DNA of 21,765 bases, from contig JALTLO010000156.1 of NCBI GenBank assembly GCA_027001995.1, positions 1 through 21,765 on the forward strand, in the 5' to 3' direction. Source of the stretch: Planctomycetota bacterium (lineage in GTDB: Bacteria; Planctomycetota; GCA-002687715; DRQF01). Below the pieces are notes generated by a model that did not search any database, had not been told where the DNA came from, and saw only the letters and a program-made list of their open reading frames with translations. Each line of letters opens with the position of its first letter. Within the stretch, counting starts at the first letter, position 1. This document shows, piece after piece, positions 1 through 6,640 of the stretch. A program made the translations under genes and the position numbers.

Positions 1-842
1 AGTACAACGCCAATCCAACTTGGAAAGAACGCTATAACCGCGACAAGGATCGCGGCGAACCAGAGCATGACTATCTGGAAACGACCATTTCTGGCGCGAG
101 TAGCGCAAGCCGCATCAGGAGCGCAAGAACGATTTTTGAAGTATGTTATGTAAAACGCGAATCCCAGTAAGACCGAGGCAGCTCCAAGAAACCAGGGTCT
201 GACCGATTCGAAGGCTGCGGACACCCCAGCTGCGGACATGCCAAATGCAACCAGCAGCAGTGGAAGCCAACAGCAGGCGGACGCCACAATGGCGGCAAGA
301 AGCGAACCACCGGCCGCCCAAAGCCCCCTAGGGCGTTCCTGGCCTGATTCGGTTGCCATATCGGCAAAAACCGCATGTCCCGCAACTGAACAACAGTCGT
401 CATCCTCGGAGATGGCCGCCACGTCTACGGTGCCCATTGCCTTTTCGGTCGCTTTCCGAATGTCGCTGAGGCAGCATTTCCCCTTGGGGTTCTTGAGCTC
501 ACAGGCACAATTACCTGCGGCAACTTCAGCTTTGATCGAAGAGAATGCCGTACTGACGCCGGTGCGTTCAATCTCCTCGCGAATACTCTCCTCGGAGTGA
601 CCAAAGCAGTAGCAGACCGTGTGCGGGGGGGCCTCGACCTTGGCTCCGATTCGCACGGTGACGTCGTCCTGTCCGACGGTCGTTCCGGCACTGGAAAAGT
701 AGGCCACAGAGCAGCCGGGTTTGGAGCAGAATGCCCAGGATTCCTCGTCGGTTGGCGACCGTTCTGGACAGACGAGCGCCTTCAGGGTTGCGACGCCGAC
801 TTTTTGGCCAGTCGTCTTGCAGTCAGGGCACTTGGATTTCAT
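1..842 (-). CDS. Fusion of a CopZ-N-terminal-like Zn/[2Fe-2S] (BFD-like) domain and a MerT-family mercuric transporter domain; 3' end outside the window
   Basis: Translated by hand; absent from the ORF track because its stop lies outside the window. ATG at 842 follows GGAGG. Reads MKSKCPDCKTTG...WAFCSKPGCSVAYF...TVCYCFGH...NCACELKNPKGKCCLSDI, a linker DDDCCS, then in the same frame without a stop MATES...LLAAIVASACCWLPLLLVAFG...VRPWFLG...GFAFYITYFKNRSCAPDAAC...MLWFAAILVAVIAFFPSW (MerT TM1 CC pair plus the loop Cys pair). Confidence 0.88.
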   Translation of the reverse strand, partial: MKSKCPDCKTTGQKVGVATLKALVCPERSPTDEESWAFCSKPGCSVAYFSSAGTTVGQDDVTVRIGAKVEAPPHTVCYCFGHSEESIREEIERTGVSTAFSSIKAEVAAGNCACELKNPKGKCCLSDIRKATEKAMGTVDVAAISEDDDCCSVAGHAVFADMATESGQERPRGLWAAGGSLLAAIVASACCWLPLLLVAFGMSAAGVSAAFESVRPWFLGAASVLLGFAFYITYFKNRSCAPDAACATRARNGRFQIVMLWFAAILVAVIAFFPSWIGVV

Positions 843-885
843 AGCGTCCTCCGGTTCGAGACCCGATGCCTCCAACTACTTGAAC

Positions 886-907
886 GCCTTGAACCCAGGT
901 GCAGGGT
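886..907 (-). promoter_or_regulatory. Degenerate MerR-family operator dyad upstream of the CopZ-MerT fusion
   Basis: Minus strand ACCCTGCACCTGGGTTCAAGGC aligns with the dyads at 1363-1384 and 6616-6637; its -35/-10 elements are poor. Confidence 0.55.
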
Positions 908-918
908 TTCCAACTAAT

Positions 919-1350
919 TCAGTTTTTCTTTCGCCGGTCCGATTTGCCGCTCTTGCGACGGAGTTCATCGACCACTTCACACGGGGCGGCCGGGTCGGCA
1001 GCGAGACATTGATCCAGGGCCCCTTTGAGCGTGTCTTTCAGCAGCCGCAGTTCGCGCATCTGCCCACGAACGGACTCCAGCCTGGACTCAATCAGGAGGC
1101 GCACCTCGCCGCAAGGGGCCAGCTCGCCGTCGGCGAACCGCAACAGCCCCTCGACGTCATCAAGCGTGAATCCGTTTGCTTGTGCGGCGCGAATGAACCG
1201 GACACGTTCGGCGGCATCATCGTCAAACACACGGTAGTTGCCGCTTGTTCGGAGACTGGGACGAATCAGTCCTCGACGTTCGTAGTACCGCAGGGTCGAG
1301 ACGGGCACATTGGCAGCCTTGGCGAGTTTTCCAATAGTCATGCGGGCCAT
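919..1350 (-). CDS. MerR-family heavy-metal-responsive transcriptional regulator
   Basis: HTH MTIGKLAKAANVPVSTLRYYERRGLI...GNYRVF, then RFIRAAQANGFTLDDV. Cys at the start of the dimerisation helix (APCGEV) plus CLAADPAAPC gives the three-Cys set of divalent-metal sensors (MerR/ZntR/CadR/PbrR). Confidence 0.93.
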   Translation of the reverse strand: MARMTIGKLAKAANVPVSTLRYYERRGLIRPSLRTSGNYRVFDDDAAERVRFIRAAQANGFTLDDVEGLLRFADGELAPCGEVRLLIESRLESVRGQMRELRLLKDTLKGALDQCLAADPAAPCEVVDELRRKSGKSDRRKKN

Positions 1351-1356
1351 GGAACC

Positions 1357-1387
1357 ATGATAACCCTTTACCCAGACTAAAGGTCAA
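1357..1387 (-). promoter_or_regulatory. MerR-type sigma70 promoter with 19-bp spacer and operator dyad
   Basis: Minus strand TTGACC-tttagtctgggtaaagggt(19)-TATCAT; dyad CCTTTA-n7-TAAAGG. The ATG at 1350 lies 6 nt after the -10 element. Confidence 0.85.
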
Positions 1388-3784: not shown

Positions 3785-4472
3785 CAAGAGTCATGAAGAA
3801 GAAGCAAGGTGCACAATATTCGTTTCTTTCGAACAGCGGTGGCCCCTAGCAGAAGCAGGTGTTTGGTGAAAATACGGACACACACGGTGTCGCAAACAAA
3901 ATTACCAAAGATCATGATTCTGAACAATTCGTTGTAGCACGCCCCGTGGAGTCTGATAGGATTGGCAAGCTAAATCGAGGGTTGATGTCTATCCCTCTAT
4001 GTCTGAGGTCCATCTGGCTGGAATCTATCCTTAAGATTCATGGCATCCTACAGTAATCAACACACCTGCACAGAATCCCCAGCCCCCATGAGACAAGACA
4101 ACCAAATCCCTTGTTGATCACGAGCTGGTTCCCCCAGATTGAATCCAGGCAAGCCCACTCTTAGAACCTTTATTCCGCAACAGCTTGCGACCCGAGTGAT
4201 TCTTCGTGTCCAGGCCATTTTTTCGCCAATGCTTCCTGTTCTTTGAGTCAGTCCCATCTTCATCAATATTCTTTCTCCGAAGCTCAATGGGCTGCGTGTC
4301 CCTGATCTTCGAATCCAGTTTTTTCTCTCGTCTTTTCAACGCTTACCGCCTAGCCCGAAGACTTCACGATCTTTCCAAGCCCACTGGCCATGTTTTACTT
4401 TGAAAAGAGGTCTTAAGAATCGTTGTTCCGAGCTTTCTTTGTGAGGCATTCTCTCGCACTACGCCCACGATC

Positions 4473-5003
4473 TCATGAATTCGTCGGCTTAGGAACCAAA
4501 GCAGGCGGCGATTGGGAATAGTCGACAATGGCATCGAAGGCCTTATTTTCCAGGATGGATTCGCTGCTGCCCATCCACGGATAGTAGAAAGGAGCGTTAT
4601 CGATCCTAAGGTGAAGCACACCATTGCGGGTTTCCAAAATACCAGTTGCTCTAATTGACATGGTTCCAGGCTTAAATCCGGCATCTTTGATCGCAATTGG
4701 CACTTTCGCGAGGTTGAGAGGGACGTTCTCTGAGGGCGTCACAAAGGCCAAGTTTTCTTGCAAATCGATGCGTACATGTTTGACGCCATCCAGGCGTCGA
4801 AGGGCGTCAGCGACACCCTTGGCTCATGGAGTTCACTCCATCCCCAGCGCTTGCACCTTAATGGCCATGAGACCGGACTTAATAGCGACTTGAGATTGTC
4901 GATTACCTTCCCTCGAAGAGGATTCCGACGGCGCTTTGTTCGAGGATGCGCAACTGATCAGTGCGAACAAGAGAAAAGCGCTTGATACCAACAATGTCTT
5001 CAT
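4473..5003 (-). CDS. HMA (MerP/CopZ-like) domain lipoprotein with two in-frame UGA codons at the CxxC positions; candidate UxxU selenoprotein, 176 aa
   Basis: AGGAGG, ATG 5003, signal peptide and lipobox MKTLLVSSAFLLFALISC. Continues IKVQALGME-TGA(4833-4835)-T-P-TGA(4824-4826)-AKGVADALRRLDGVKHVRIDLQENLAFV...IAIKDAGFKP, a complete HMA pattern. Joins track ORFs 4833..5054 and 4473..4763 in one frame. Confidence 0.85.
4782..4820 (-). other. Two tandem candidate bacterial SECIS hairpins
   Basis: mRNA AAGGGUGUC-GCU-GACGCCCUU (4800-4820; 9-bp stem, loop 21 nt after UGA1) and GACGCC-UGGAU-GGCGUC (4782-4798; 6-bp stem, loop 31 nt after UGA2). Both loops have a G in the first two positions. Confidence 0.55.
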
Positions 5004-5017
5004 GAAAATCGTGCCTC

Positions 5018-5947
5018 CTAAAAGATAAACTTCACACCCAAAGTTGCGCCCCATTGGCGGCGTCCGAAAGGATCGTCAATATTCTGGAAGATTGGAACCT
5101 GGATAGAGGCCTCAATCAACACGTCTCGATTCAAGTATATTTGGACACCGGGAGCAGCCCAGACTTCGAAGCCACCGTCGTCCAAACCACCTCGGCTGCC
5201 GATACTTTCGGAGCGATACGTTGAGAGGAGTTCGAAAACACCTCGCACCTCAACCTCTTGTTCTTCTGGATCAAAAGTAGCGGGAGTGATTCGATACCAA
5301 TACGCCAAGTTGAGATGGAAGGAATCACCAAGTCGAAAACCCTCATGGCGCGTTCGATGTCGATAGAACACCTCAGCGGAAAAGCGATGACGGTCACGGA
5401 TAATAGTAAAAGCGCTCCCTACGCCGACACCCCATCCGCCCGATCCAAGCTGGAGCTTCCGTGGCAACTCGACACCGGCTTCTCGCTCACGATGTCTGCC
5501 GGTCGGCGCGACGCCCTCAACCATCACCGCCCAACGCGTTGACTCAAGGACACCGTCTTCTTGAAACAGAGAATATTTCAATCTTAGCTCAAGGTCGCCA
5601 AGTCCAAATAGGGAATCACTCTCATCGAGGCCAGATGGTGTCTTGAATTCCAAATCTCGGTAGAGAGTTGGAACCGTAAGTCGAGTCTCCAAAGTTGGAG
5701 TTGGGCTGTAAACGAATTGGAGCAAAGATCGAACTTCTTTGACATGAGCAAATGACCGATAGGACAAAAGCTCAATCAATGTCGGTAGCTCAGGCGAATT
5801 GACGCCGGCATTGGCGGTGAGAATCTGCCCACTTGTTGCAGGTGCAAGTAGCAAGAAGGAAATAGCGAGAACCAAGTGAAAACGGATACCAATTCGGCCT
5901 CTATTCTGATGTGCCCAACCACTGTTTGGACTTGATGTTTCAGACAT
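5018..5947 (-). CDS. Putative outer-membrane beta-barrel transporter (MetA-pathway/SphA-like family)
   Basis: Signal peptide, GLGDLELRLKY, PTG...LQLGSGGW, amphipathic beta-strands, APGVQ, and a C-terminal aromatic residue (GVKFIF); RBS AGAGGA. Confidence 0.8.
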   Translation of the reverse strand: MSETSSPNSGWAHQNRGRIGIRFHLVLAISFLLLAPATSGQILTANAGVNSPELPTLIELLSYRSFAHVKEVRSLLQFVYSPTPTLETRLTVPTLYRDLEFKTPSGLDESDSLFGLGDLELRLKYSLFQEDGVLESTRWAVMVEGVAPTGRHREREAGVELPRKLQLGSGGWGVGVGSAFTIIRDRHRFSAEVFYRHRTRHEGFRLGDSFHLNLAYWYRITPATFDPEEQEVEVRGVFELLSTYRSESIGSRGGLDDGGFEVWAAPGVQIYLNRDVLIEASIQVPIFQNIDDPFGRRQWGATLGVKFIF

Positions 5948-6186
5948 GGATTCCTCTTTCCTTATTCTGCTTCAGCTGACGTCGCATTCTGATCGTCATG
6001 AACTCCACCAACTCCGATCCGTCCGGCCGAGAAGGCAACTTTTGGTCAATACCTAACAAGCGTTCCATCCATCTTGACCATCACAGAGAGGTCGTTGTTT
6101 CCTATTCGCAGGAACACATCGCAGCGGAGCCTTGAAATGGGAACACAGTCTCTTTCGTGAGTTTTCTAATCATAAGCTCACCAGAT

Positions 6187-6588
6187 TCATTCATCATCCA
6201 TTGCCTCCAGAATGGAGCATTCACCTATCGGACCGTCATCAACGCATCGTTCGACCAAAGAAGCCAGTGCTCGTCGAATAGCGCGCAGTGAACGAATTTT
6301 CTCATCGACGTCGGCAATCTTGCCTTCAGCTCGCCGCCGGACGTCAGAGCATTTGGCGTTCTCCTTGGCGCGTAAATCAAGAAGGTCGCGGATCTCACGT
6401 AGTGTAAAGCCAAGCTCCTGCCCGCGTTTGATAAAACCGATTCTCTGAACATAGTGCTCCGGATACTGGCGGTAATTTGATGAACTTCTCGGCGGCTTCG
6501 GAATGAGCTTGATCTTCTCGTAGTAGCGCAGTGTTTCAGGATTGATCCTGCACCGGCGAGACAGCTGCGCTCTTGTTAGTCCATTCAT
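6187..6588 (-). CDS. MerR-family heavy-metal-responsive transcriptional regulator
   Basis: LTRAQLSRRCRINPETLRYYEKIKLIPKPPRSSSNYRQY, FIKRGQELGFTLREIRDLL; Cys triad KCSDV / RCVDDGPIGECSIL. Confidence 0.95.
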   Translation of the reverse strand: MNGLTRAQLSRRCRINPETLRYYEKIKLIPKPPRSSSNYRQYPEHYVQRIGFIKRGQELGFTLREIRDLLDLRAKENAKCSDVRRRAEGKIADVDEKIRSLRAIRRALASLVERCVDDGPIGECSILEAMDDE

Positions 6589-6608
6589 TCTTGGCTCCGT
6601 TGGGATGG

Positions 6609-6640
6609 ATCTTAAACCCTGTAGTTAGGTACAAGGTCAA
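6609..6640 (-). promoter_or_regulatory. MerR-type sigma70 promoter with 20-bp spacer and operator dyad
   Basis: Minus strand TTGACC-ttgtacctaactacagggtt(20)-TAAGAT; dyad ACCTTGTA-n6-TACAGGGT, resembling CadR/PbrR/MerR-type operators. Confidence 0.85.

Follow-up and report, generated by a model that had tools for sequence, protein, structure and literature searches.

Does a gene interrupted by two in-frame TGA codons encode a broken protein, or a metal-binding selenoprotein with its own partner in the outer membrane? The question arises from a stretch of 21,765 nucleotides from a Planctomycetota bacterium (assembly GCA_027001995.1, contig JALTLO010000156.1), the whole of which is referred to below as the window. 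On its minus strand, a MerR-family regulator gene is followed by a gene for a predicted outer-membrane beta-barrel and by a putative lipoprotein gene with a heavy-metal-associated (HMA) domain, in which the two TGA codons lie. The original prediction, made from the sequence of the window alone, had seen in these genes a metal-inducible envelope system, whose channel and selenocysteine-containing lipoprotein capture or hand off mercury- or cadmium-like ions. Comparison with other genomes indicates that the lipoprotein is a real and widespread MerP/CopZ-type exported metallochaperone with two predicted selenocysteines, a dedicated barrel and a two-hairpin recoding signal.

The two in-frame TGA codons

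Judging from comparative evidence, both UGAs are almost certainly read as selenocysteine (Sec, U). The source genome, which is 92% complete, carries selA, selB, selC (the tRNA-Sec gene) and selD, all above their cut-offs, and its selD itself contains a TGA. With the lipoprotein as a query, a word-indexed homologue search returned no matches, and a full HMMER scan gave 923, the best 150 of which were examined. Many of these 150 start immediately downstream of the motif, at query residue 62 or shortly thereafter; full-length Cys proteins, about 170 aa long, are also among them. All four motif states, UU, UC, CU and CC, are present among the relatives. The locus thus combines the marks of a bacterial selenoprotein, namely alignment of UGA with Cys and homology continuing beyond it, selABCD, and a downstream hairpin with a loop G. 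The selA gene is present in 38 of 38 genomes with a TGA-bearing partner and in 289 of the 401 genomes of a phylum sample, and it is lacking from the four genomes (completeness 97–100%) in which an all-Cys HMA lipoprotein is encoded upstream of the barrel; related genomes are not independent, and the selA counts are given without a P value. From its frequency in the sample, Sec use looks common in the Planctomycetota.

The opposite reading, that the lipoprotein gene is a pseudogene whose TGAs are genuine stops or errors, could draw on the public gene calls, which end at the first TGA (P0006, 73 aa) or begin past the second; the window's own gene has been deposited as a stub that ends at the first TGA. 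It is nevertheless exceedingly improbable, given that the same two TGAs occur in dozens of divergent selA-positive genomes, with intact downstream frames and covarying hairpins. The feature is considered to be beyond chance because both TGA positions, the upstream barrel and the downstream RNA structure recur in many genomes. The read-through that had been proposed is therefore supported by selABCD, the recurring TGA pair and the conserved hairpins, and termination at the first TGA would give a product of 56 aa, the very length foreseen for failed read-through.

The only run that contains both TGAs is labelled as a hydrothermal vent metagenome; this DNA may derive from it, and it does not count as independent. 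In three further runs, only short pieces elsewhere are covered. On plasmids, no Cys homologue of the lipoprotein was found, and two weak barrel matches there are without an annotated HMA neighbour.

The lipoprotein and its HMA domain

The motif of the lipoprotein reads GMEUTPU (U57-x-x-U60) and lies in an HMA domain at approximately residues 45–118, behind which a small C-terminal beta domain follows. L-I-S-C18 is read as a lipobox by the usual consensus, under which Ala at +2 goes with sorting to the outer membrane. With U read as C, the protein scores 35.1 bits against PF00403 (gathering cut-off 24.8). In the predicted structure (pLDDT 87.4), the HMA region takes the MerP/CopZ fold; fold searches, which used residues 41–122 only, aligned the model with 1fvq at a Z of 11.9 and an rmsd of 1.6 across 72 residues. 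Score, ferredoxin-like fold and GMxCxxC-type motif all place the lipoprotein in PF00403. One full-length family member, P0147, has neither Cys nor Sec in the motif, which reads GVDEWPAA.

The two-hairpin recoding signal

Two stacked hairpins follow the second UGA (Table 1), the first of which begins 12–13 nt past the first UGA in both registers (13 nt in the window). Across 19 genes of the UxxU register, 88.8% of the cells are paired and 8 of the 15 pairs show double-sided changes; hairpin 1 has such changes in 5 of its 9 pairs, and hairpin 2 is paired in 98% of cells. None of 500 shuffles matched the pairing or the covariation score, and slid controls dropped to 32–47%. Because the structure was derived from the same sequences and kinship inflates such scores, a synonymous-recoding control was added: in 34 of 35 loci from a GTDB scan (described below), no more than 5 of 100 recodings did as well as the natural sequence, and for the window 2 of 1000 did. 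Compensation is visible even in the protein, where KGV..DAL is exchanged for KAV..DGL. Genes of the UxU type show complete pairing of hairpin 2, three pairs of which are changed on both sides. Thirteen of 54 metagenome UU genes pair poorly in the usual register; ten were folded, all with hairpin 1 register-shifted. Both hairpins are missing in the all-Cys locus L047.

Hairpin 2 is likely the SelB-binding selenocysteine insertion sequence (SECIS), as its sequence conservation suggests. Its second loop base is G in 35 of 35 GTDB loci, at a third codon position and not fixed by the search pattern. An arrangement of one SECIS per UGA is disfavoured because the loop of hairpin 1 has no invariant base in 85 pooled genes of the UxxU register. 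The G-loop of hairpin 2 lies about 32–33 nt from the second UGA and about 41–42 nt from the first; those of candidate single-UGA genes in the source genome, picked by eye, start 19–35 nt downstream (33 in selD). Natural single-Sec genes are too few to decide on the SECIS model: two UxxC genes retain both hairpins, and of two CxxU genes, L011 has hairpin 1 in a shifted register and L046 retains hairpin 1. Two other UxxU genes of the source genome also show a small hairpin, 2 nt and then a G-loop hairpin.

Conservation of the barrel–lipoprotein pair

The neighbourhood comparison that the original prediction had proposed was carried out, and the linkage of barrel and HMA protein proved to be conserved. 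In the phylum sample of 401 Planctomycetota genomes, a barrel profile matched 108 genomes in 163 places, and 73 of the better-scoring loci were examined, the window among them. An HMA-type gene lies directly downstream of the barrel in 42 of the 73 (39 with two TGAs, 2 with one, 1 all-Cys). The remaining 31 comprise 4 with an all-Cys HMA lipoprotein upstream, 12 with a YHS-type lipoprotein downstream, assigned by eye and in one case confirmed by Pfam, and 15 with none of these. The Cys-rich YHS-domain lipoproteins behind barrels (L029, L034–L038, L041, L060, L065, L066, L086 and L016) represent a parallel pairing of a barrel with a metal binder. The TGA forms fall into the motif types G[ML]EUxPU, G[VI]TUP[IM]U, xxUIUND and GU[TS]U[NS][EQ]; no Pfam or NCBIfam model matched the representatives scanned for the last two.

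A DNA motif scan of GTDB genomes, which permitted Cys or Sec at both positions and used no information on the barrel, gave 37 matches. Thirty-five are family members (33 UxxU, 2 UxxC) in records titled Planctomycetota or "bacterium", all with a barrel directly upstream; the other two are chance matches without a barrel. This set overlaps with the phylum sample, 11 of the 35 loci sharing the 51-nt recoding region with loci there. In metagenomes, 109 matches were obtained, of which 80 were fetched and 72 are distinct (54 UU, 3 UC, 1 CU, 14 CC). Among UU loci flanked by 350 nt or more, 42 of 45 have the barrel upstream, as against none of 12 CC loci; the 14 CC matches are generic CopA/CopZ domains, not orthologues, and therefore form a weak control.

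In a quick tree of 97 barrels, partner types cluster, with 11 changes against a shuffled mean of 55.8. This fits long co-inheritance of barrel and partner and is no proof of binding. A genome-contig scan using the barrel alone recovered none of 119 candidates, and the alignment of the lipoproteins has no stretch conserved enough for use as a search query. Cys members of the wider family appear as large clusters in Acidobacteriota and Bacteroidota in a feature search, which is a lead only.

Table 1. Features of the barrel–lipoprotein locus in the window, from promoter to recoding signal
Feature	Position	Strand	Description
MerR-type promoter	6609..6640	minus	9-4-9 operator inside at 6637-6616
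-35 box TTGACC	6640-6635	minus	
Spacer		minus	20 nt between TTGACC and TAAGAT
-10 box TAAGAT	6614-6609	minus	
merR gene	6588-6187	minus	133 aa, MerR-family metal sensor
merR-to-barrel gap	6186-5948	minus	239 nt
Barrel gene	5947-5018	minus	309 aa, PF13557/COG4313-type outer-membrane beta-barrel
AGGAGG ribosome-binding site	5014..5019	minus	overlaps barrel TAG, 10 nt ahead of ATG at 5003
Lipoprotein gene	5003-4473	minus	176 aa with both TGAs read through
First in-frame TGA (Sec57)	4835-4833	minus	aligned with Cys of full-length homologues
Second in-frame TGA (Sec60)	4826-4824	minus	
Hairpin 1	4800..4820	minus	9 bp, +4 to +24 after second UGA, loop unconserved
Hairpin 2	4782..4798	minus	6 bp, 5-nt loop, +26 to +42; invariant G at 4791

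By these gene orders, the conserved unit is the barrel plus the Sec-HMA protein, without MerR. The regulator had been regarded as part of the module, and this did not hold beyond the window: a MerR-family gene occurs within ~2.5 kb in 7 of the 35 GTDB loci, and the others have ArsR or no regulator nearby. The 28 loci without MerR at this distance, many of them among housekeeping genes, suggest a different core role, such as scavenging of a scarce metal or selenol/diselenide redox chemistry in the envelope, with MerR control as a later gain in a minority. Small thioredoxins (five loci) and UxxU HMA-thioredoxin fusions are linked to the pair, and the pair is far commoner than the mercuric reductase MerA (42 loci versus 2 genomes). 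Such a housekeeping role is quite unlikely all the same, considering that the regulators, where present, belong to the MerR and ArsR types, sensors of metal excess, and that the predicted fold of the lipoprotein is that of a metallochaperone and not of a thioredoxin.

The outer-membrane barrel

The barrel product has a likely signal peptide up to about residue 40 and ends in Phe. It scores 31.3 bits against PF13557 (cut-off 22), and its predicted structure has 12 strands (pLDDT 78.9). A structure search with this model gave FapF (5o67) as the top match (E 4e-12), and comparison with the COG4313 channel Pput2725 (4rl8) yielded TM values of 0.66/0.75. The conserved Asp and the Pro-Thr-Gly (PTG) cluster, hallmarks of COG4313, are kept, so that the barrel belongs to COG4313/PF13557 by sequence and by predicted fold. 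Several Arg and Glu are invariant in barrels of this subtype only. The solved relative is occluded by its N-terminus and is proposed, in the accessible part of its description, to be a carrier of hydrophobic solutes (PMC4493636). Because the family is tied to hydrophobic solutes and the barrel has no conserved Cys or Met, the ion channel of the original prediction is not established.

The overlap of the barrel's TAG stop with the AGGAGG ribosome-binding site of the lipoprotein gene was borne out, and this arrangement of the sequence makes translational coupling likely. In an alternative reading, the barrel would be an FapF-like export pore through which the selenolipoprotein reaches the cell surface to act there as a sponge for metal, and no metal would cross the barrel. 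The best structural match is indeed a polypeptide transporter, the pairing is strictly one-to-one, with barrel clades tracking the partner type (YHS-domain lipoproteins included), and the barrel is without a metal-ligand lining. Surface display is still very unlikely, since partners without a lipobox Cys exist (L046, L047 and the AYGVxKAL subtype) and a folded HMA domain would be large for a plugged 12-stranded pore.

The MerR-type promoter and its sensor

The 20-bp-spacer promoter with a dyad that had been noticed ahead of merR was found again, with all elements co-oriented. The operator dyad on the minus strand reads ACCTTGTAC-CTAA-CTACAGGGT and agrees in 16 of 18 bases with the firmicute mercury-MerR consensus, ACCGTGTAC-(4)-GTACAGGGT. 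A 20-bp spacer is given for operators of this Gram-positive type in the part of the source available (PMC1526738), and the window promoter has such a spacer with a 9-4-9 operator within it. Boxes, spacer and operator match together support a MerR-type promoter. A standard sigma-70 scan of the window did not pick it up because only spacers of 16–18 nt are permitted there. A scan of the window for 19/20-nt spacers with a dyad filter gave two sites, one ahead of each of its merR genes. A looser version across the whole genome gave 15 matches, mostly with poor -10 boxes, and the promoter motif by itself therefore lacks specificity.

The three cysteines noted for the window MerR are present as Cys80, Cys115 and Cys124, and a fourth, Cys13 in the helix-turn-helix, had been overlooked. 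Among 15 models, TIGR02051 MerR is the top one at 118.2 bits, below its curated cut-off of 150.85. The spacing of 35 and 9 between the three, which we take to be that of MerR, is shared by C79/C114/C123 of PbrR. PbrR has C14 in addition and requires C134, according to the accessible part of PMC3431237; C134 is absent from the window MerR.

The length of the gap between merR and barrel was confirmed, and neither a MerR-type promoter nor a terminator-like site was found in it. In some relatives, a small thioredoxin gene occupies this slot; a decayed thioredoxin gene in the window is unsupported, the thioredoxin HMM reaching only 0.8 bits. MerR-type promoters lie ahead of merR in L023, L024, L028, L046, L047, L103 and L119 and immediately ahead of the barrel in L092 and L126. 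In L023 and L028, the reading frame of merR directly adjoins that of the barrel.

Neighbouring metal systems and the identity of the metal

In genome G303, an all-Cys pair lies inside a merR-trx-barrel-HMA-DUF2703-merT-merP-like-merA operon; in G357, its family sibling, the pair is of the CxxU form and neither merT nor merA adjoins it. MerC or MerT-HMA genes are neighbours in L117, L119, L126 and L027, ArsR regulators neighbour some loci, and in the window a second merR with a CopZ-N/MerT fusion sits 3.1 kb from the pair. The original prediction had set the pair against MerT/MerA and P-type ATPases as an alternative. The pair in fact adjoins such systems (the mer operon of G303, MerC, MerT-HMA, CopA-type ATPases and CusA/CzcA pumps) and would therefore complement them. 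A soft-metal role as such is supported by the predicted HMA fold, the operator match and the metal-resistance neighbours. Mercury is the best guess for the metal at this locus, with about an even chance of being right.

MerA scores above its cut-off in 2 of the 401 phylum genomes (three candidates scored per genome), and G161, the merA genome besides G303, is not among the barrel-profile matches. In the source genome (92% complete), the best merA match reaches 312 bits against 454.45 and has no C-terminal Cys pair, so that no classical mer operon is found. Replacement of MerA by Sec was dropped as a statistical claim in view of the two genomes: with MerA this rare throughout the phylum, its absence from the Sec-bearing genomes says nothing about Sec versus Cys.

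The neighbours could also point to an export module, in which the lipoprotein would gather Cu, Zn or Cd that P1B ATPases or RND systems have pumped into the periplasm and pass it out of the cell through the barrel. CopA-type ATPases (G122, G054), a second heavy-metal P1B ATPase (G122) and CusA/CzcA (G131, G001) are adjacent, the modelled HMA fold would be that of CopZ, and in some linked regulators Ser occupies the first of the Cys positions, as in CueR-like proteins. Export is, however, unlikely: selenol ligands would hinder release, MerT/MerC importers and a full mer operon are neighbours as well, and the operator in the window is of the mercury-MerR type.

A proposed mechanism

We lean somewhat towards the reading of the pair as a trap at the outer membrane, where soft-metal complexes, here most likely of mercury, are caught and kept bound to two selenium atoms. 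A divalent soft metal would bind MerR and activate the 20-bp-spacer promoter, giving a single merR-barrel-lipoprotein transcript. SelB on the G-loop of hairpin 2 would serve both UGAs, with hairpin 1 folding away about 20 nt and so bringing the first UGA within reach. The lipid anchor would then keep the lipoprotein next to the barrel, on the periplasmic side of the outer membrane. Selenols bind mercury tighter than thiols do. Neutral or ligand-bound metal species could cross the plugged barrel, the selenol pair stripping off chloride, sulfide or thiol ligands, and the metal might be stored or handed to MerT/MerC-type or pump systems, usually without MerA.

Several observations weigh against this capture of mercury. 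The barrel in the window is free of Cys, neither Cys nor Met is conserved in the barrel alignment, and the solved relative is proposed to transport hydrophobic organics. In the periplasm, oxidation might turn the UxxU pair into a diselenide, which could require a reductant. MerA is above the cut-off in 0 of 38 Sec-bearing genomes, which leaves the fate of captured mercury unexplained, and MerR genes are near the pair in only the minority of GTDB loci counted above. As PbrR shares the spacing of the three cysteines, the Cys pattern cannot tell mercury from lead. The linked sensors moreover differ among themselves, Cys80 being replaced by Ser in L092 and L126 and Cys115 missing in L046 and L047. 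Copper-type P1B ATPases and CusA/CzcA pumps adjoin the pair in the genomes already named, and the metal may therefore vary by locus. As to the recoding signal, hairpin 1 of the UxU type is 81.5% paired with no double-sided change.

Relation to known systems

The closest catalogued entry is NF041115, a UxxU metal-binding (seleno)protein listed as "putative mercuric reductase" with two Sec (Table 1 of PMC13188914). It shares an HMA-like domain with a UxxU motif. However, its model has 74 positions, and the lipoprotein scores 23.9 bits against a cut-off of 95 (five UxxU/CxxU relatives, 20–34); the family described here is 150–200 aa long, exported, extended by a beta domain and paired with a barrel. 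MerP (TIGR02052) and the mer operon resemble it in the exported HMA-fold binder, the MerR-type promoter and the one all-Cys pair inside a mer operon. They differ in that the lipoprotein reaches only 28.2 bits (cut-off 92.55), has Sec for Cys, a lipid anchor and a barrel partner, and that the Sec-bearing genomes are without MerA above the cut-off. The MerT/CopZ fusion-like selenoprotein NF045683 likewise has Sec in a CopZ-like domain in a metal-transport setting, but is a 235-position inner-membrane fusion, against which the lipoprotein, with no MerT part, scores 21 bits (cut-off 375).

The COG4313/PF13557 channels (Pput2725, SphA, TcpY and FapF) are like the barrel in the predicted 12 strands, the Asp and the PTG cluster, whereas their described roles, as far as the accessible texts go, are uptake of hydrophobic organics (PMC4493636) or export of polypeptides (PDB title). 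Among the matches listed in a literature search on COG4313, no metal or lipoprotein partner was found for that family. The SECIS of the E. coli fdhF type is also an in-frame hairpin with a conserved loop G; in the part of PMC8659212 available, its upper stem lies 11 nt after the UGA and its loop carries G23/U24. Here, by contrast, two UGAs 9 nt (or 6 nt) apart precede two stacked hairpins. The SAO system (Haft and Gwadz, bioRxiv 10.1101/2022.07.06.499078) places selenoproteins in an envelope module with a proposed mercury-like metal, but is based on an ABC importer and a MerB-like lyase, and "HMA" and "barrel" do not occur in the accessible text.

Neither the lipoprotein nor any of nine relatives attains the cut-off of an NCBIfam model, the family is absent among the 119 entries of Table 1 in the 2026 review (PMC13188914), and none of the terms sought for it occurs in the main text of the deep-Sep paper. 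Full-text literature searches, whose coverage leaves out supplements and subscription journals, turned up neither a description of a barrel paired with a Sec-HMA protein nor one of tandem SECIS hairpins in bacteria. The family is thus probably, though not certainly, uncatalogued. A broader proposal, offered only tentatively, is that of an undescribed phylum-wide envelope system, in which an outer-membrane channel and a two-selenium trap capture mercury without mercuric reductase and a spacer hairpin lets one SelB site serve UGAs 9 nt apart.

On the Sec reading, gene callers have split a large selenoprotein family in two, and it has stayed outside all curated models scanned. The pair would tie Sec to metal handling at the outer membrane and offer a possible route by which abundant uncultured Planctomycetota, almost never equipped with MerA, bind mercury or soft metals. 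The tandem hairpins would provide a small model for bacterial decoding of two UGAs three codons apart, with the natural UU/UC/CU/CC variants as controls, and such decoding could help in the production of multi-Sec proteins.

Further observations in the window and the source genome

The second MerR unit of the window (1–1387, minus strand) has a 19-bp-spacer promoter at 1387–1357 and a merR gene at 1350–919, behind which the CopZ-N/MerT fusion (NF047645 above cut-off) runs off base 1. Its G+C content is 57–58%, compared with about 50% next door. The fusion adjoins the barrel pair in five other loci, and none was found in five close relatives using this gene as a query. A contig of the source genome (G000:C188:1-1070, L139) opens inside an HMA domain and continues with a UxxU HMA-thioredoxin lipoprotein; it may continue the fusion cut at base 1 of the window, although the two end without overlap. 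A second UxxU HMA-thioredoxin lipoprotein of this genome lies at G000:C74:12130, and its homologues are found directly behind the barrel–lipoprotein pair in G047 and G122 (second gene of L026 and L031). In all these UxxU HMA-thioredoxin genes (C74, L026, L031), two stacked hairpins follow or overlap the second UGA. Further HMA-like frames interrupted by an in-frame TGA occur on the minus strand at G000:C26:9639 (TPLUGPSU) and C155:3648 (GLAUQK).

Between the two MerR units of the window lies a pRiA4b ORF-3-like gene (PF07929; 2453–3787, minus strand), a family often found on mobile DNA. An intergenic repeat of ~110 nt (window ~4380–4495) is located directly past the lipoprotein stop; 29 further matches in the genome are listed, at 68–90% identity, and several contigs pile up on it.

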